DNA of 64,000 bases from a virus. The stretch's first letter is position 1; each line of letters begins with the position of its first letter. The notes below the pieces were generated by a model. The model saw only the letters and a program-made list of their open reading frames with translations. It did not search any database and was not told the origin of the DNA. The stretch is taken from the IMG/VR virus record IMGVR_UViG_3300044739_000018, positions 99,482 through 163,481 of that record. One strand, written 5' to 3'. Of the stretch, positions 529 through 16,197 are shown piece after piece. A program made the translations under genes and the position numbers.

Positions 529-529
529 G

Positions 530-602
530 CGCCCTCCCTCGGATTCGAACCGAGAACCTACGGCGTTAGAAACCGCTGCTCTGCCAGTTGAGCTAGGAAG
601 GC
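530..602 (-). tRNA. tRNA-Sup(CUA) amber suppressor #1
   Basis: GCCTTCC TA GCTC AACTGGCA GAGC A GCGGT TTCTAAC GCCGT AGGTT CTCGG TTCGAAT CCGAG GGAGGGC G; 7-nt loop gives anticodon CUA. Confidence 0.8.
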
Positions 603-5210: not shown

Positions 5211-5717
5211 ATGAACACTGCACAGAAGAAACCGAAGGAGCTGAACCGTGAACGTCGTCGCACGCGCCGTTGCTACGACCATCTATACGTTGCTCCACTC
5301 TGGGTTGCCTTCGAGGCGAACCTCGGAACCCTCCTCAGGACTTGCGATGCTGTGGGGGCGTGCATGGCCCTTCCGAGCACGCCGTACTATCGCCAAGCCC
5401 TTGCTCGCGGTCGAACCCTCAACGGGAAGCAGACCTGCGTCCACTGGGTCCAGAAGGGCACCTACGTCGAGTCCATGAAGGGCAAGGCCCGCATCATCGG
5501 AGTCGAACTTGCCGATGACGCAACGATGTTGGGCGACGTGCGGCCCGCACGGGAACGCACCATCGTCTGCCTCGGACATGAGCACGAAGGTCTTCCGGCA
5601 AAGGTCTATCCGCTGCTGGACGAGGTTGTGGAGATCCCCATGATTGGCGTGGGTAGCAGCCTTAACGTTGCCGTCGCAGGGTCCCTTGTCTTGTACAAGT
5701 TGAGCGGCTTGATCTAA
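5211..5717 (+). CDS. TrmH/SpoU-family (SPOUT) RNA 2'-O-methyltransferase
   Basis: NLGTLLRTCDAVG, LGHEHEGL, VEIPMIGVGSSLNVAVA SPOUT motifs. Confidence 0.9.
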   Translation: MNTAQKKPKELNRERRRTRRCYDHLYVAPLWVAFEANLGTLLRTCDAVGACMALPSTPYYRQALARGRTLNGKQTCVHWVQKGTYVESMKGKARIIGVELADDATMLGDVRPARERTIVCLGHEHEGLPAKVYPLLDEVVEIPMIGVGSSLNVAVAGSLVLYKLSGLI

Positions 5718-7642: not shown

Positions 7643-8079
7643 TCGAGACTTACGCCGAGGCGGCGAAGCGGGCACAGCAGAACTTGGTTGACGTACTCAT
7701 CATGGCCGACGCCCTGCTGTTCTTCGGCAGCCTGGTCGCCCTGTTCCTGGCATGAGCTACCCGCCCGACTCCATGCGGCCCGGCGACAAGACAGTGCCGA
7801 ACACTGACCCCGATCTGGGCAGGATGCTGCGCACCTTCTCGGACGCCATGGACCAGTGGATTGCCCGTAGGAAAGAGTCAAGGAAAGAGGAACGCCAGTT
7901 CAAGCGCGTTCAACGTAAGTTGAAGCGACAGTACAAATGACACGTTTCCGCATCGAACACAGGTTCGGAGGCAACCCAACCGTCGAATACCGCGATTCCA
8001 TCTACACGGCGATGTGGCTCGTGGAGAAGTACCTGAACCTTGACGTGAAGCTCGTCATGGTCGAACGCATGGAGGAAGA

Positions 8080-8442
8080 TTGCGAATCGAAGTCGTCTAC
8101 CGAGGCGTCGTCATCGGAACCATCCACGACGCAGGAAGCAGACACACCCTCACCACCCCCTGCGTCATCGAGCGAAACGACGCCCTCAACATCAACGTCT
8201 ACGACGGACCCGCCGCCACCCCCAGCAACTACAACGTCCTGACCCAGATCGCCGCTGGCTTGGATCGGCAGGCGTCTGCAACAGAACGGATGGCGAACTT
8301 CCAGGGCAATATCGAGCGCGCCATCAACGAGGAGTTCACTTTCCTCCACGAGCAGTGCCGTGTGCAACAGGCCATCATCGACAAGTTGAATGTCGAGCTT
8401 GCGGCGTCGAGGGGAGGGGATGAAAGTGAACCTGCTGCGTGA
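8080..8442 (+). CDS. Hypothetical protein
   Basis: GGAGG SD, overlaps neighbours in operon fashion. Confidence 0.5.
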   Translation: MRIEVVYRGVVIGTIHDAGSRHTLTTPCVIERNDALNINVYDGPAATPSNYNVLTQIAAGLDRQASATERMANFQGNIERAINEEFTFLHEQCRVQQAIIDKLNVELAASRGGDESEPAA

Positions 8443-8626
8443 GATCTGCCACGGTGCAACACTCGTTGCGGAGTTCTGGATCTACGGTGCCGCGTACGCC
8501 CTCGCACAGCTTCTGACCTGGGATGATGACGATTTCCGCAGGCCCTTCGAAAATCAGTTGGTGCCCGCTCCAGAAGTCGCTATCGTCTGATCGCTAAAGA
8601 AATTCCGGCTCGTTGCCGAAAACTTG

Positions 8627-8654
8627 TTGACATCCCGAGAACTAGGGGTAAGGT
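8627..8654 (+). promoter_or_regulatory. Putative SigA promoter heading the tRNA island
   Basis: TTGACA-N16-TAAGGT. Confidence 0.55.
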
Positions 8655-8905
8655 AGCAAACGCTATGACGCAGAACATGACCACCGAGCGATTCCAGGGG
8701 ACATCCCTCCTGTCGAGTCCCGTGGCCGCGTCTGCCTACCCGCAGCCCGTCCATGAGACGAAGCGGGAATTGGGCATCCAGGCGAATCGCCCGGATACCA
8801 AGTGCCTCACCTGGTAAAGACTCACCTGTAGGGGAGTACAACCAGAAAGGCACAAGGGACCAATAGGTCTCTCCCCTACATAGCAGACCAACAACTGAAT
8901 ATCAT

Positions 8906-8973
8906 ACGCCGGAGTCAAGGTGATCATCGGGTCTCCAAAACCCGTGGAGTGGGTTCGATTCCTACCCGGCGTG
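8906..8973 (+). tRNA. tRNA-Trp(CCA), reduced D-arm
   Basis: CGGGT-CTCCAAA-ACCCG; T-arm GTGGG-TTCGATT-CCTAC. Confidence 0.8.
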
Positions 8974-9114
8974 CAAGGAGAATGTACCTCCGGCGTCATA
9001 CGGAGTGAGGATCTCCAGCAGGCGATAGTCCGGTACCGAACATAACCCGGACGCATAGGCATCGGAAATGAAGTACCCCGGGAGGGGCGGTTACGGCTGT
9101 CCCTCCTGGGTCAT

Positions 9115-9197
9115 GGGTCGGTATGCAAACGGTGAAGCAAGCTGGCTGTAAACCAGTGACGTAAGAGACGTTGGGGGTTCGAATCCCTCCTGGCCCA
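9115..9197 (+). tRNA. tRNA-Tyr(GUA)
   Basis: GCTGG-CTGTAAA-CCAGT, long variable arm. Confidence 0.9.
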
Positions 9198-9322
9198 CAA
9201 ATCCGACGAGAACCTCGCTGTTGTGAGACAAACTGTTGTAGCAGGACCGTCCGTGAGCCGGAGGTTATAGGCCCGGACATAGAGGCGGTCTACGCGACCA
9301 GGAGGTCACTCATCGGAAGCAT

Positions 9323-9396
9323 GCTCCACTAACTCAATTGGCTAGAGTACCTGCCTCTTAAGCAGGGAGTTCAGGGTTCGAGTCCCTGGTGGAGTA
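9323..9396 (+). tRNA. tRNA-Lys(CUU)
   Basis: CCTGC-CTCTTAA-GCAGG. Confidence 0.92.
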
Positions 9397-9399
9397 CGA

Positions 9400-9470
9400 G
9401 CAGGAAGTTCCGGTTCAATTCCGGAGGCCGTGGCGCAAGCCAGGGTTTGGTGTAACGGCAGCACACCTGC
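9400..9470 (+). ncRNA. Circularly permuted tRNA-like (YrlA-like) module 1
   Basis: GCAGG, T-arm TCCGG-TTCAATT-CCGGA, acceptor closed by GCAA tetraloop, D-arm GTGT/GCAC, CCTGC. Confidence 0.6.
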
Positions 9471-9479
9471 GTTGTTCAC

Positions 9480-9553
9480 GGTCCTATAGATCAGATGGTT
9501 AGATCGCTACCCTGTCAAGGTAGAGGCCGCGGGTTCGAGTCCCGTTAGGACCG
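9480..9553 (+). tRNA. tRNA-Asp(GUC)
   Basis: CTACC-CTGTCAA-GGTAG. Confidence 0.92.
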
Positions 9554-9814
9554 CGCAAGTAATGGTGAAGCTGAACTGAAGCTCGCAGAGGGAACTGGAC
9601 TGTGAATCCAGGGCCACCAGTCTGGAACGAGCCGAAGGAATGCCCAAGCCTTGCTCCGCCAGTCGTCGGCCGACTGACATGCCTGTGATGACATATTGGG
9701 CTTCATGCCCTCGGGACCACCAGCGATAGCCGATGGGCGTCCTAAGCTGATGTGCCGAAATACCCGCCCAACTTCTTCGGGAGTTGGGATTGCGCCTTGA
9801 AGCGCAGCAGTCTA

Positions 9815-9889
9815 GTCTCGATGGTGAAATGGAGATCATTGCGGTCTACGAAACCGCCGTTAGAGGTTCGAATCCTCTTCGAGACGCCA
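9815..9889 (+). tRNA. tRNA-Arg(ACG)
   Basis: GCGGT-CTACGAA-ACCGC, CCA encoded. Confidence 0.92.
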
Positions 9890-9895
9890 CCACAC

Positions 9896-9972
9896 GTCGA
9901 TGTAGCTCAGCCGGACAGAGCGCGGGCCTCCGAAGCCCGAGGCCAGAGGTTCGAACCCTCTCATCGACGCCA
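9896..9972 (+). tRNA. tRNA-Arg(CCG)
   Basis: CGGGC-CTCCGAA-GCCCG, CCA encoded. Confidence 0.92.
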
Positions 9973-10361
9973 TGAAGATCCAAGGTTGGCTCGACTGGTT
10001 CCGCGAGCACGCTTTGCCCAGGGACACGTTCATCGAGAAGGTGACCGACCACGTGGGCAACGTCAGCCGGACCCGTGAAACCAAGATCAAGGTTCCTCGC
10101 CGTGCCCGCATGGACGAGATCGACAAGCTCCTGGCTGCGGCCAAGGGCGTGAAGCTCGATACCGAGATCATCGTTCCGGCCCATGCCGTGGCTGCGGAGG
10201 GGGCGACAACGACGATTCAGATGAATTGCGCTGACTGCAACGAACGTTGCAACGGAAGCGTGAAGACTTCCTGGCTCACCAGTCAGGCAGCAGGAGATCT
10301 AGTGAGGTGGCAGTGCGCCAAGTGCGGACTGGAGCAGTTTTGCAGTATCACGCCGCAGTAG
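9972..10361 (+). CDS. Hypothetical Zn-ribbon protein
   Basis: CADC...CAKC; ATG overlaps the tRNA CCA and the stop lies inside tRNA-Thr. Confidence 0.6.
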   Translation: MKIQGWLDWFREHALPRDTFIEKVTDHVGNVSRTRETKIKVPRRARMDEIDKLLAAAKGVKLDTEIIVPAHAVAAEGATTTIQMNCADCNERCNGSVKTSWLTSQAAGDLVRWQCAKCGLEQFCSITPQ

Positions 10362-10424
10362 CGTCAACGGTTAGCGCGCGTCCTTGGTACGGACGAAGTT
10401 CAGGTTCGATTCCTGACTGTGGCT
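10352..10424 (+). tRNA. tRNA-Thr(GGU)
   Basis: CGTCC-TTGGTAC-GGACG. Confidence 0.9.
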
Positions 10425-10557
10425 CTCGGAGTGTCGGGTACCAGTGATGGCCCGAAGCGACCTGCCCCCAAAGTACCGGTTGAGGGGACGGTTGTATCGA
10501 GCACTCCTATCCCGGGTGGTGGCGGGCTGGTAGCTCCAGCCCGCTGCTTCCCATCAC

Positions 10558-10629
10558 GTCTCTGTAGTTCAAAGGAAAGAACACGAGTTTCCTAAACTTG
10601 CGATGGGGGTTCGAGTCCTCCCAGAGACG
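10558..10629 (+). tRNA. tRNA-Arg(CCU)
   Basis: CGAGT-TTCCTAA-ACTTG. Confidence 0.88.
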
Positions 10630-10942
10630 CTCAAGCCAGTGGATGCCATCATGCCGTTGGAAGGGAACATCCGGCTGCGTAGTAGCCGTCCTGAAAGACG
10701 TTCGTGCGGGCATCGGCGGGTTCGACCCCCGTAGCTTCCACAACGAGGGAGCTTGCTGCCGGTGCAGCCCTGGCACATTGTATTTCGAGCGGATAGTGCC
10801 GATCTTTAGGTGAGCAGATCACCCCAGACCCTGGTGATTGGACTGGGGAATCTGTGCGCTATCGACACTACGAACTCAAGACGATCTTCATGGTTGCCTT
10901 TGTGGCCTTCGTAGTCATCAACCTCGTAATGGTGGTGGCTAT

Positions 10943-11353
10943 ATGAGCGGTGAAACCGAACAGCAGGTCAGTGGGTGGACAGTTGACACCCTGAATGAGC
11001 ACCTCCAGCGCATCATTGATGAGAAGCTGGCAGCTCAGGACGTGCTTATTACGGAGCGCGACCGCCGTTACGAACAACGCTTTGAGGCCCAAGAGAAGGC
11101 CATCCAGAAGGCGGAAACCGCGACCGAGAAGCGGTTCGAATCGGTCAACGAGTTCCGATCCGTGCTTTCGGACCAGACGAGGAGCTTCCTCCCTCGTGAA
11201 GAGTACAATCGTGCTCACACAGATCTGGCTAGCCGGTTGGATGAGGCGACCAAGAGTACCAACGAGAAGTTGGAACAGGCCGTGAAGACCCTTGAGAGTC
11301 GCATTGCCTCTCTCCAGCAGCAGCTCAACGCCGTCGAAGCGGTGGTGAAGTAA
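10943..11353 (+). CDS. Coiled-coil phage protein
   Basis: AQEKAIQKAETATEKRFESVNEFR heptad-rich sequence. Confidence 0.65.
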   Translation: MSGETEQQVSGWTVDTLNEHLQRIIDEKLAAQDVLITERDRRYEQRFEAQEKAIQKAETATEKRFESVNEFRSVLSDQTRSFLPREEYNRAHTDLASRLDEATKSTNEKLEQAVKTLESRIASLQQQLNAVEAVVK

Positions 11354-11571
11354 TGCCCGTCGTGACCTTGGGGACGCTGGCCGAGAAGCTGATCGCTGCC
11401 CAGACTGGCATTGACCAGATCCAGGTAGAACTCAGGAAGGTCAACGAGCAAGCTCTTGACCGGCGAGTCTCCAAGCTGGAAGACACCGTAAAGTTCTTGA
11501 GCCGCACAGTCGCCGCCACGCTCATTTCGGCCATAGGGTCGGCCATCCTCGCGGTGGTGATGTCCCGATGA
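11353..11571 (+). CDS. Small coiled-coil plus C-terminal TM protein (lysis-associated-like)
   Basis: RVSKLED followed by a hydrophobic C-terminus; translationally coupled. Confidence 0.55.
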   Translation: MPVVTLGTLAEKLIAAQTGIDQIQVELRKVNEQALDRRVSKLEDTVKFLSRTVAATLISAIGSAILAVVMSR

Positions 11572-11912
11572 ACGAAAAAATGGATGAGACAAAGGCGGAC
11601 TCCCGCTTCAATGGAGTGCGTGTCCTCGTCACCGCCATCATTGTCGGCGTATTGGCCGTGGCGGTATTCGTGTCGGCCAGCCTCCTGACGAGAGTGCCGA
11701 AGAACGCTCAGGATCTCCGAGAGCGGTGCGTGTCATCAAACCTGGCGATCCAGCAGTTCAACACCAAGTTCTCGCAGTTGGTTGACTTGTTCGACCAGTC
11801 GCTGGCAAACCCGGACCCGAACAGGCCACCGCCGTCGCCGGAGGTCCTTGCTCTTTACGCCGAGTTCAAAAAGCCCGTCCCTCTCATCAAGTGCGAGGAC
11901 GACGGCCGCTAA
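11568..11912 (+). CDS. Membrane-anchored protein (lysis-associated-like)
   Basis: N-terminal TM, two Cys; ATGA overlap. Confidence 0.55.
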   Translation: MNEKMDETKADSRFNGVRVLVTAIIVGVLAVAVFVSASLLTRVPKNAQDLRERCVSSNLAIQQFNTKFSQLVDLFDQSLANPDPNRPPPSPEVLALYAEFKKPVPLIKCEDDGR

Positions 11913-11922
11913 GTTTTCGTGA

Positions 11923-12101
11923 ACCCAAGCTCAGTAGGCAGAGTAGCCTTCAGGGGCCGGAGGTCGTGGGTGGGATTCCCACCGAGTCCATCATGAGTCG
12001 TCACTCGGGTGTAGCGCCGCCAGGCTGCCTACAGTGACGGTTCATCGTGGGGTCGTAGCTCAGTACCCAGAGCACCGTCTGGAACCTACGAAAGTGCGGG
12101 T
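11923..12101 (+). ncRNA. Circularly permuted tRNA-like (YrlA-like) module 2 with long hairpin extending the acceptor stem
   Basis: T-arm GTGGG/CCCAC, CGAGTCC pairs GGGGTCG, extension ATGAGT-CGTCACT/AGTGACG-GTTCAT, D-arm GCTC/GAGC. Confidence 0.55.
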
Positions 12102-12113
12102 AACACAACACCT

Positions 12114-12196
12114 GGAGAGATACCCAAGTGGTGAAGGGGACGGTTTGCTAAACCGTTAGGTCGAAAGGCGCGTGGGTTCGAACCCCACTCTCTCCG
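12114..12196 (+). tRNA. tRNA-Ser(GCU)
   Basis: ACGGT-TTGCTAA-ACCGT, long variable arm. Confidence 0.92.
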
Positions 12197-12273
12197 CGCT
12201 GGTGGGTATGCGGACTATAGGCGTGCATGCGCGCTTGGTCGTCCCGGCGCCGGGATGGCTGCCCACCGGATTC

Positions 12274-12543
12274 TTGAGATAGCCGGGTGACCGCGGCACG
12301 ACTTGATCGTGTCGAGGAAGGTCGGGACTCCACAGGACGAGGGAGCCAACGAGAGTTGGGCGGGCGTGAGCTTGCGGCTCTGCAACAGAGACGAGCCGGT
12401 TAAGTCCGGGTGAAACGGGCAACCCCCTGGAGCAACTTCATACAGAGGTCGCTGGTCCGGCGATAACCTCGGGTAGAAGGCTTAGATGGATGGTCACCGC
12501 GCTACATGCTGGCGTACAGAATCCCGCCTACAAGCTATCTCAG
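12274..12543 (+). ncRNA. rnpB: RNase P RNA (compact, ~270 nt)
   Basis: P1 TGAGATAGC/GCTATCTCA; CR-I GAGGAAGGTCGGGAC; CR-II/III ACAGAGA..GTGAAACG; GAGCAA; CR-IV AGATGGAT; CR-V ACAGAATCCCGCCTAC with P4 pairing intact. Confidence 0.9.
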
Positions 12544-12549
12544 TATCTC

Positions 12550-12636
12550 GGAGCGATGGCAGAGTCTGGTTGATTGCACCTGCCTTGAAAGCAGACGTGG
12601 GGTAACTCACCGGGGGTTCGAATCCCTCTCGCTCCG
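12550..12636 (+). tRNA. tRNA-Ser(UGA)
   Basis: CTGC-CTTGAAA-GCAG, long variable arm. Confidence 0.92.
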
Positions 12637-12791
12637 CTCGCCAACGTTCGTTGGCAAACCCGTACTCATTCCTAGTACCGCTACGCAATGTTAGTCCTCG
12701 TAACTATCCGCCTGGCTGACCTGCGGTTTTAACGTCCTCCCACCTGTTCAAACGTGTGGCCGGTACTAGACATGAGTACATGACTCACCTC

Positions 12792-12875
12792 GGAAGGCAT
12801 CCGAATTGGAGAGGAACCCGCCTCGAAAGCGGGCACGGTGTAACAGCCTTGTGGGTTCGAGTCCCACGCCTTCCG
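12792..12875 (+). tRNA. tRNA-Ser(CGA)
   Basis: CCCGC-CTCGAAA-GCGGG. Confidence 0.9.
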
Positions 12876-12904
12876 CTTTGACAACCCGATGTGACAGAGC
12901 AGTC

Positions 12905-12975
12905 TGTATCGTAGCTCAGTTGGATAGAGCGCCGCCCACAAGGCGGAGGTCGCAGGTTCGAGTCCTGCCGAACAC
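12905..12975 (+). pseudogene. tRNA-like gene (Val-CAC derived?) with 5-nt anticodon loop
   Basis: Intact D- and T-arms; CCGCC-CACAA-GGCGG; bulged acceptor stem. Confidence 0.6.
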
Positions 12976-13011
12976 TGGAACTCTCGAATGTGCGGGCGAG
13001 TCAATAACCTC

Positions 13012-13357
13012 GGGGCTGACAGGTTTCGACGGTGCAAGTGAAGCTAGGAGTGCGACCGGTCTTGGGCAGAGACCTAAAACGGCCTACCAAAAACAAACGA
13101 CAACGACATCGTTGCCGAGGCAGAGGCCGTCCTGGCTTCTGCTGCTCTCGCTACTGTCTGACAGTAGCTTGCGGGGAAGCCCATCCTTGAGATCCAAACG
13201 GGCATGTGACATGACTCTCAGGAAAGACTGAGTGGCGCTCCGTGAAATGCGGGCTGACAGCCGGAAAGACGGCACACTGGCCCGACAGTAAACGGGAATG
13301 GTCGTATCACAAGTAGTGAATCTGCAACGGACGTGGGTTCGAATCCCACCAGCTCCA
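13012..13357 (+). ncRNA. ssrA: tmRNA; predicted tag (A)DNDIVAEAEAVLASAALATV
   Basis: 5' GGGGCTGA..GGTTTCGAC, 3' GGTTCGAATCCCACCAGCTCCA, G3.U70 pair, tag ORF 13099-13161. Confidence 0.92.
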
Positions 13358-13358
13358 C

Positions 13359-13578
13359 GTGTATGCGCAACGAAAGGTTGGCTTAGAGGCAGCCATCCTA
13401 TAATGAGTGGGGTAACGGTCCATCTTGGCAGTAGCTGGGGTGGACCTCCGGGCAATACCGTTGGAGACAGCGAGTACGTCCGGGATCAGGTACGTGGGGA
13501 CTAGCCTGCCCATCGGTAACCGCTTTCTCCGTTCCTCGGAACCGCCCTTTGGCGTAATAGCACATCCTTGCGTGACAC
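13359..13578 (+). ncRNA. 23S rRNA GTPase-associated-centre (H43/H44, uL11 site) mimic with ~140-nt insertion
   Basis: AGGTTGGCTTAGAGGCAGCCATCCTATAATGAGT...GCGTAATAGCACA versus the rRNA pattern AGGTTGGCTTAGAAGCAGCCA..CTT.AAAGAGTGCGTAATAGCTCA; closed by GTGT..GCGCAA/TTGCGT..ACAC. Confidence 0.75.
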
Positions 13579-13582
13579 ACCT

Positions 13583-13665
13583 GGAGAGGACCCGAACGGT
13601 CAGGAGCCTCGTTGGAAGCGAGGTACGGGTGCAAGCCCTAGTGGGTTCGACCCCCACCCTCTCCG
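13583..13665 (+). tRNA. tRNA-Ser(GGA)
   Basis: CCTCG-TTGGAAG-CGAGG. Confidence 0.88.
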
Positions 13666-14028
13666 CTCCACATAGCGGGACGACAACTAATCGCGTTACA
13701 GGAAGTCGTTCTGCACGACCAAGGAGGTGAGTGAAGGTTATCAGCACCTACATCCGGTGGCATCAAGCTTCCGTTTGGAGCCTTCTCTCACACCGCAACC
13801 TGATCTGAAAGTGGTACGACCGGCCCGACAAGAGGCTACCCTCCTCAGCGTCCCGCCTCCCTGGCTCGGTGCCCGCATGCGTGCGGGCTTACCTGCGGTG
13901 TGATTCCTCAGGTGAGAGTGGTCGTGAATCCACGTGATTTGACGGTAAGCCAACGCTCGTTGCAGTGAGAACGTGGCTTCGCAGGAACAAGATGTCGGAA
14001 TGCTGAACTGGCCGTGACGGTGCAGTCG

Positions 14029-14099
14029 TTGGGATTCGTATATCGGTAGTACACCCGGCTTTGAACCGGGTGGAGTGGGTTCGACTCCCGCATCCCCCC
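14029..14099 (+). tRNA. tRNA-Gln(UUG), mismatched acceptor end
   Basis: CCCGG-CTTTGAA-CCGGG. Confidence 0.75.
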
Positions 14100-14148
14100 T
14101 TGAACGGAGACTGAAACACCTGATCCAAAGGTAACAGCGTTCCATCAT

Positions 14149-14222
14149 GCCCCCATCGTTTATGGGTAGGACATCAGCCTTTCAAGCTGATAGACAGGGT
14201 TCGAGTCCCTGTGGGGGTACCA
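14149..14222 (+). tRNA. tRNA-Glu(UUC)
   Basis: TCAGC-CTTTCAA-GCTGA, CCA encoded. Confidence 0.92.
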
Positions 14223-14223
14223 A

Positions 14224-14294
14224 GGCGCATTAGTTTAGTGGGAAAACAACTGGTTCTCAGCCAGTCGTCAGGAGTTCGATCCTCCTATGCGCTA
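14224..14294 (+). tRNA. tRNA-Glu(CUC)
   Basis: ACTGG-TTCTCAG-CCAGT. Confidence 0.88.
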
Positions 14295-14351
14295 CTCATA
14301 GCAACGGCTCCGTGGCTCCTCCATCGGTACACCCGATGAGAGGGGGTGAAC

Positions 14352-14513
14352 GTGCCCAAGTATCACAGAGTAACGGGAGCCACCCGCTGCTATGTCTGCG
14401 GCCAGCGTCTGACGCTGACCGACTATGACGACGGCGATGAGGTCATCGCTAGTCACATAGACAAGACTCACATGAGAGTCATCAAGGCTCTCATTCGTTT
14501 CGCCCGCTCCTAG
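14352..14513 (+). CDS. 53-aa C2H2-like Zn-finger microprotein
   Basis: GAGGGGGTG SD; CYVCG...HIDKTH. Confidence 0.5.
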   Translation: MPKYHRVTGATRCYVCGQRLTLTDYDDGDEVIASHIDKTHMRVIKALIRFARS

Positions 14514-15784: not shown

Positions 15785-16135
15785 ATGTGTGGTGGAGGGA
15801 AGTGCAACCCCGATCCTCAGGTCGCCGCCAGCTTCCACCGCCTGGAGGAGCAGCGTCTGGCTGACATCGAGCGGTGGGGCCAGTGCGAGGAGATCAGCTA
15901 CCGCAACAAACGGTGCCACTACCCAATCGGTCACGACCGCGGGCACCATGCCGGTGACGGAATCACCTGGGCAACGGACGTTGAACATGAGGGCGGCCAG
16001 GCGGCAGAGCTGAAGAAGTTGTTCGAGACGTGCAAGACGATCATCCCCGGCATCGAGCTGCCCGCATGGGTGGAGTTCCAGGCCGACTTGTCTCACCTGG
16101 GCTTTCTGCTGGGGATCAAGAACGAGGACGCGTAA
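15785..16135 (+). CDS. Hypothetical protein
   Basis: ORF ending in TAA inside tRNA-Val. Confidence 0.55.
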   Translation: MCGGGKCNPDPQVAASFHRLEEQRLADIERWGQCEEISYRNKRCHYPIGHDRGHHAGDGITWATDVEHEGGQAAELKKLFETCKTIIPGIELPAWVEFQADLSHLGFLLGIKNEDA

Positions 16136-16197
16136 CTCAGAGGCAGAGTGCCAGGACGACACCCTGGTGGTCATTGGTTCGAATCCAATCGTGTCCA
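16126..16197 (+). tRNA. tRNA-Val(GAC), non-canonical A32/C33
   Basis: CCAGG-ACGACAC-CCTGG. Confidence 0.82.

Follow-up and report, generated by a model that had tools for sequence, protein, structure and literature searches.

A predicted phage RNA that rebuilds the uL11-binding domain of 23S rRNA around a variable insert

The element and its neighborhood in the phage genome

The window analyzed here, a stretch of 64 kb, is the final part of a complete phage genome of 163,481 bases with direct terminal repeats and 60% G+C. Its plus strand carries, from about 8.9 to 22.4 kb, a tRNA array with some 40 tRNA genes, a tmRNA and an RNase P RNA; ARAGORN counted 43 tRNA/tmRNA genes in the whole genome. 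Together with a CCA/poly(A)-type nucleotidyltransferase gene outside the window (genome positions 80710-81156), this near-complete tRNA set, the tmRNA and the RNase P RNA are the tools of a phage that supports translation in its host. A Pup gene, likewise outside the window (genome positions 15981-16163), suggests a host that is probably actinobacterial or of the Nitrospira type. Two tRNAs with CUA anticodons (amber suppressor-like) lie on the minus strand at window positions 529-602 and 1167-1236, and a tRNA-like gene with a shortened anticodon loop at 12905-12975 was seen by Rfam and not by ARAGORN.

Between the tmRNA gene and a tRNA gene of the array lies a predicted non-coding RNA of about 220 nt, whose ends fold into a self-closed copy of the uL11-binding domain of 23S rRNA (Table 1). 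When the two rRNA-like parts are joined (13374-13408 and 13552-13564) and compared with 23S positions 1056-1103, 43 of 48 bases agree with the nearest of 112 true rRNA copies, and the median over these copies is 41/48. The 5' half has a chance expectation of about 7e-10 in a genome of 163 kb and is present once. A 143-nt insert splits the rRNA-like core after U1090. The window copy keeps all four bases at the loop tips (A1067, G1068, A1095 and A1096), the U1060-A1088 pair and the bases of the 1071/1072/1089 triples. A preliminary description, made from the letters of this DNA, had already placed both halves (the first of them from 13376), the stem around them, an insert of about 140 nt and the two retained loop adenines, and all of this is borne out here.

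Table 1. Positions of the element and its neighbors in the window, with rRNA positions in E. coli 23S numbering
Feature	Position	Strand	Remarks
Phage RNase P RNA	12275..12546	+	class A, shortened (272 nt); 120 bits with Rfam; same array
tmRNA gene	13012..13358	+	5' neighbor of the element; CCA not encoded at its end
Whole predicted RNA	13359..13578	+	predicted ends
Closing stem, 5' strand	13359..13373	+	stands in for rRNA helix 42 below 1055; without the Kt-42 kink-turn
H43 copy (1056-1081)	13374..13399	+	G1059 = 13377; U1060 = 13378; A1067 loop with A1067 = 13385; G1070 = 13388
1082-1086 loop and 5' strand of H44 to U1090	13400..13408	+	has A1082-U1086; A1082 = 13400; U1086 = 13404; A1088 = 13406; U1090 = 13408
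Multi-hairpin insert, 143 nt	13409..13551	+	short closing helix; 13-bp hairpin 13417-13446; uncertain middle arms; UUUG linker
H44 copy (1091-1103)	13552..13564	+	G1091 = 13552; A1095 = 13556; family-diagnostic A1101 = 13562; A1103 = 13564
Closing stem, 3' strand	13565..13578	+	from folding and covariation
tRNA-Ser(GGA)-like gene	13583..13666	+	3' neighbor of the element; weak D arm

A BLAST comparison of the tRNA tract with rRNA loci revealed no rRNA-like sequence besides the element, tRNA matches apart. Rfam 15 gave no match over the element, either at the gathering score or at E<=10, and even the partial LSU match that had been expected did not appear. A 23S rRNA gene or fragment is thus ruled out by the insert, the missing LSU match and the lack of any further rRNA piece in the tract, in agreement with the preliminary description. 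We also set aside a coding explanation, since the overlapping open reading frames are mechanical and covariation acts at the RNA level. As for the 3' flank, which had been called tRNA-Ser, there is indeed a gene with a GGA anticodon, but the call is weak: ARAGORN missed it at the default threshold and reported it only at a relaxed one.

A promoter scan of window positions 8000-14500 found no sigma-70 promoter. The element would share the transcript of the tRNA array and be released by tRNA processing. Trimming of the tmRNA, which encodes no CCA, from its 3' end, together with an RNase P cut at 13583, would leave a mature RNA that probably spans about 13358-13582 (~224 nt). The RNase P RNA encoded by the phage could itself free the 3' end at 13583. 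Release through the flanking tRNAs, as proposed earlier, is therefore plausible for the window copy but not obligatory, because the copies of Serratia phage BF and Xanthomonas phage XacN1 sit between protein genes.

Fold, covariation and extent of the family

The closing stem comprises 12 pairs, with one C-C mismatch and one small internal loop. The fold of the whole element reaches z = -3.2, and none of 200 shuffled sequences folded as well. Relatives were collected by three pattern scans. The H43 half, run against viral contigs, yielded 39 matches, only two of them true rRNA, and a scan with the H44 half gave at least 120 matches, so that the family is larger than the set analyzed. The third scan was anchored on positions 1072-1090, left both loop tips largely free and covered viral contigs and bacterial assemblies. 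The 142 distinct cores that it returned stem from viral contigs, from cultured phages and from tRNA arrays of bacterial genomes; all have the insert at the same site, with insert lengths of 27-338 nt. Among the H44-half matches listed, 109 of 131 have an H43 half upstream, compared to none of 105 downstream controls. The two halves are hence co-conserved in related phages, and the search for them at variable spacing that the preliminary description had proposed uncovers a large family.

Both halves are found in the cultured phages pf16, Milchi and UNO-G1W1 of Pseudomonas, BF of Serratia, XacN1 of Xanthomonas and 4_4572 of Aeromonas, none of which has the element annotated as an RNA; many of the cultured carriers infect Gram-negative hosts. 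A tRNA or tmRNA on the same strand is found within 30 nt of 28 of the 86 viral members, and within 500 nt of 50 of them. No fixed partner gene accompanies the family (the best neighbor cluster occurs at 10 of 180 loci). Rfam assigned no family to 13 small loci with relatives and reported a single partial LSU match. In XacN1 (L430) the element is located directly 3' of a gene annotated as 2'-5' RNA ligase. Split elements were also seen inside a chromosomal tRNA array of a complete Acidithiobacillus chromosome (L260) and in Nitrospira assemblies (L218, L239, L255), and one locus (L231) holds two copies 1.2 kb apart.

Covariation was measured as corrected mutual information over the family alignment. 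Of 3741 column pairs, the 16 strongest had all been predicted: they comprise 1058-1080, the closing stem beginning at 1055-1104 and running outward (with 1054-1105 among its pairs), four pairs that close the insert and the tertiary pair 1082-1086. The latter occurs as U-A in 68, C-G in 44 and A-U in 21 members and scores 1.07, whereas the first non-predicted pair scores 0.13. The A1082-U1086 form of the window copy is found in one of the 112 true rRNAs compared to 21 of the 142 family cores. The H44 pairs are invariant in the family and hence uninformative for covariation. These data confirm that the fold of the element is under selection, and we regard it as almost certain that the elements are a real folded RNA family. 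The identity of the core, the self-closing stem and the covariation together bear out the earlier proposal of a free-standing H43/H44 mimic.

The helix that closes the insert begins directly after U1090, and a UUUR linker follows on its 3' side throughout the family. In the window copy this register gives three G-C pairs (13409-13411/13545-13547) and a 4-nt linker at 13548-13551. The closure GGGGT/GCCCT of the preliminary description is the energy minimum, but the register supported by family covariation is shifted by one base. Within this insert, firm structure is limited to the closing helix and the hairpin 13417-13446. Since no close relatives of the insert were found, its inner hairpins are drawn from folding energy alone (z about -2.1).

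Although no motif is common to all inserts, sub-motifs recur. A hairpin that contains an ACC/UAA internal loop and lies toward the 3' end occurs in 26 of 128 non-redundant inserts, against 0.03 expected, and defines a subfamily (L005, L011, L017, L019 and about 35 other loci) to which the window copy, lacking this hairpin, does not belong. Copies of the sarcin-ricin loop lie inside the insert in 7 of 181 members (L008, L071, L077, L177, L188, L212, L243), with three strict matches compared to 0.035 expected. They are mostly in a flanking stem, and most of their carriers have altered H43 or H44 tips. Neither the insert of the window copy nor the tRNA tract of its genome contains such a loop. 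In four cyanobacterial loci of Nostoc/Anabaena (L226 at 5380-5510, L251, L258 and L309), the H43/H44 copy is unsplit, and a sarcin-ricin loop lies 71-72 nt upstream of it, without further 23S sequence; by their sequence, these pairs appear to be a second, cellular kind of factor-site mimic. At L226 the unsplit copy precedes an open reading frame of no assigned function, followed by one that looks ThiF/E1-like by eye. The repeated pairing of H43/H44 with the sarcin-ricin loop suggests that what is imitated is the factor-binding center.

Positions kept, relaxed and dropped relative to rRNA

The 112 true 23S rRNA copies that served as reference were fetched with the same middle pattern as the third scan. 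Fisher tests between family and rRNA positions treat the sequences as independent, and their significance is therefore overstated. The family keeps U1060, A1088, G1071, C1072, the UAA at 1083-1085, G1087, G1089, U1090, G1093, U1094 and A1098. They are also kept where members were retrieved with only the H44 pattern, and hence they are no artefact of the search. In members that were not selected on them, U1060-A1088 and the bases of the 1071/1072/1089 triples are invariant or nearly so; of the UAA, A1084 and A1085 are present in 67 of 67 members and U1083 in 64.

On the contrary, the kink-turn signature Kt-42 is absent from all 142 members, while 110 of the 112 rRNAs have it. The loop tips are relaxed: A1067 is kept in 117/142 members (108/112 rRNAs), G1068 in 112/142, A1095 in 129/142 and A1096 in 114/142, the latter three being present in all 112 rRNAs. 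All four tips together are retained in 68 of 142 members compared to 108 of 112 rRNAs. Tip changes are spread over 9-24 of 83 core backgrounds, and A1067 or A1095 is changed in 37 of 142 members, in many of these backgrounds. Position 1101 is A in 141/142 members and U in 111/112 rRNAs, A1101 being part of the fuzzy search pattern. Taken at the level of sequence, selection thus keeps the folded uL11 domain and neither the uL10 site nor the loop tips. The same invariant bases would, however, be needed for folding alone, and uL11 is thus not singled out as the selected partner. A further reservation comes from a second insertion of 20-57 nt between 1077 and 1078 of H43 in 9 of 81 members (L050, L070, L080, L102, L103, L125, L130, L131, L152). 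This site is on the strand contacted by uL11, which weakens the case for uL11 binding.

Two earlier suggestions are not supported at the family level. For titration of the uL10 stalk complex, every member lacks the kink-turn that uL10 requires. For a thiopeptide decoy or a faithful decoy of GTPase contacts, the bases A1067, G1068, A1095 and A1096 are much less constant in the family than in rRNA, even if the window copy has all four. With Kt-42 absent and the tips relaxed, a sponge for thiopeptides or uL10 is unlikely as the purpose of the family.

The element has the helices of the GTPase-associated center (top of H42, H43 and H44; E. coli 1051-1108) and with them U1060-A1088, the 1071 and 1072 triple bases, UAA 1083-1085 and a covarying 1082-1086 pair. 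Judged by fold and bases, it is predicted to work like the 58-nt uL11-binding rRNA domain. Unlike the rRNA, it stands free in a phage, is split after U1090 by 143 nt and a UUUR linker, has a plain closing stem without Kt-42 and U1090-A1101 in place of U-U, and belongs to a family whose tips are free to vary.

The rplJL (L10) leader, too, occurs naturally and binds a ribosomal protein by imitating part of the H42-H44 region. It can titrate L10(L12)4 in trans when overexpressed (PMC4538822), and uL10 binding requires the kink-turn plus the UAA (PMC4538822; PMC10931766). This leader is a cis-acting mRNA element; the phage element retains the UAA without the kink-turn, follows H43/H44 almost base by base and is flanked by tmRNA and tRNA instead of a ribosomal-protein gene. 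An rplJL-type leader is therefore ruled out, as no ribosomal-protein operon lies downstream and the genome has no L11 or L12 gene. A review names no uL11-binding leader (PMC10931766).

Structured RNAs known from tRNA clusters of phages and mobile elements include GOLLD, Y RNA/YrlA, theta ribozymes, tmRNA and RNase P RNA. No Rfam model for GOLLD, Y RNA/YrlA or theta ribozymes matches the element. We rejected a Ro60-bound Y RNA, because the complete genome lacks a TROVE/Ro60 gene and a DUF2828/DUF7788 gene is close to few relatives. The 4.5S SRP RNA shares a decamer with 23S 1068-1077, within H43, and is reported to bind EF-G; it has only these ten bases in common with the element and a different fold, and no Rfam SRP model matches the element.

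The rRNA mimics known so far are, to our knowledge, leaders of mRNAs, and they control ribosomal-protein operons in cis. A published description of such an RNA was not found in the full text of the searchable literature, which leaves out most subscription journals, and none of the surveys of non-coding RNAs that were covered names an L11- or rRNA-like motif. That no named family is known, as first noted, agrees with this and with Rfam 15. The element may be an unrecognized entry among the 10,006 unnamed candidates of Fremin et al. It is neither an rRNA gene nor an L10 leader, an intron or a member of an Rfam family.

A possible function as a stalk-base decoy

Searches of the phage genome found no gene for L11, L12, an EF-Tu/EF-G-type GTPase or RelA/SpoT, and HMM and tblastn searches of the complete genome found no TROVE/Ro60 or DUF2828-like gene, with the control of one search silent. 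The partner of the RNA is therefore most likely a host protein. The reading that we favor starts from the free RNA, folded into the 58-nt H43/H44 domain and closed by its own stem, as the covariation supports. Host uL11 would bind through its C-terminal domain and lock the fold; the invariant binding face makes such binding likely. The resulting RNA-uL11 particle would be an off-ribosome imitation of the stalk base, and it may draw off host proteins that read the factor-binding center and would otherwise halt translation during infection. These proteins might be ribosome-directed defense effectors or stress sensors, which is the weakest step. The insert would be variable cargo mounted on U1090, in some relatives displaying a sarcin-ricin loop and thereby the second half of the factor-binding center.

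We put the probability that the RNA acts as such a free, uL11-bound decoy for host translation-shut-off proteins at roughly 45%. In its favor are the co-conserved halves, the covariation, the sarcin-ricin pairings, the proximity to tRNA and tmRNA genes and the translation kit of the phage. Against it count that the window copy has no sarcin-ricin loop, that no partner gene travels with the family and that no defense effector recognizing H43/H44 was found. Because the loop tips are relaxed, a faithful decoy of proteins that read these tips is unlikely.

Among the alternatives, depletion of free or exchangeable uL11 fits what is conserved: no more and no less than the 58-nt uL11 domain, while the uL10 kink-turn is missing and the tips are relaxed. 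uL11 is required for RelA activation, as known from relC mutants, and uL11-poor ribosomes would activate Rel/RelA badly, so that the stringent response would be blunted. However, the RNA would presumably be needed in numbers near the ribosome count, while existing ribosomes already hold their uL11, and the sarcin-ricin loops and the second insertion at 1077/1078 are left unexplained. We consider this sponge rather unlikely.

The RNA could instead regulate or sequester translational GTPases, either EF-G, EF-Tu and IF2 or stress GTPases such as BipA, LepA and Obg. The RNA of the factor-binding site consists of two parts, H43/H44 and the sarcin-ricin loop, which occur together in some relatives, and the tips of the window copy are intact. 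Yet fewer than half of the family members share these intact tips, and even the seven members with a sarcin-ricin loop have mostly altered ones. Furthermore, translation factors are recruited by the uL10/bL12 stalk (PMC10931766), which cannot dock without the kink-turn, and a phage gains little from titrating elongation factors. Such a role thus seems quite unlikely.

About as unlikely is a protein-stabilized scaffold. Here the domain would be a compact, nuclease-resistant handle, with the function carried by the variable insert or by a partner protein, for example one like Ro60. The wide range of insert lengths and the recurring hairpin speak for it, as does a DUF2828/DUF7788 VWA protein gene within 5 kb at 8 of 180 loci. 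However, the inserts have nothing in common throughout, some are shorter than 50 nt, and the searches for TROVE and DUF2828-like genes in this phage were negative. We give this explanation a small chance.

Splicing of the insert as an intron is very unlikely, and so is use of the RNA as a spare part swapped into damaged ribosomes. The last base of the 5' half is an invariant U and that of the insert is G in 111 of 142 members, as in group I introns, but the insert ends in A in the other 31, inserts can be as short as 27-50 nt, and there is neither a catalytic core nor an Rfam intron match; a group I intron was rejected on these grounds. A spare part would be misfit for a working ribosome, given the self-closing stem, the missing kink-turn, the relaxed tips and A1101. 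A thiopeptide sponge is highly improbable. It could appeal to A1067 and A1095 of the window copy and to the Pup gene, since the actinobacterial (or Nitrospira-type) host that this gene suggests is one for which thiopeptides are relevant. However, changes at A1067 or A1095, which reduce thiopeptide binding (PMC5960728), are common in the family, and many cultured carriers have Gram-negative hosts. Finally, a decaying captured host rRNA, an assembly artefact or chance would account for the high identity to rRNA, but these are refuted by covariation with compensatory changes not seen in rRNA, and by the family-specific linker and A1101, the fixed insertion site and the occurrence in cultured phages.

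We found no precedent for a phage RNA of such wide occurrence that acts in trans and reconstructs a complete tertiary domain of 23S rRNA; it would place rRNA mimicry among the ways in which phages protect or steer host translation. The family can be read as a mutagenesis experiment of nature on a textbook RNA domain, from which one learns what bases are required for the fold away from the ribosome, and that the domain tolerates insertions at 1090 and 1077. Since members are present in cultured phages, the predictions are directly testable. More tentatively, the stalk-base decoy may belong to a class of modular imitations of the factor-binding center, always with the uL11 domain and sometimes with the sarcin-ricin loop, that phages use as counter-defense RNAs to absorb ribosome-directed toxins or sensors. 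If this is true, the RNA would serve as bait for finding an unrecognized group of ribosome-directed defense proteins.
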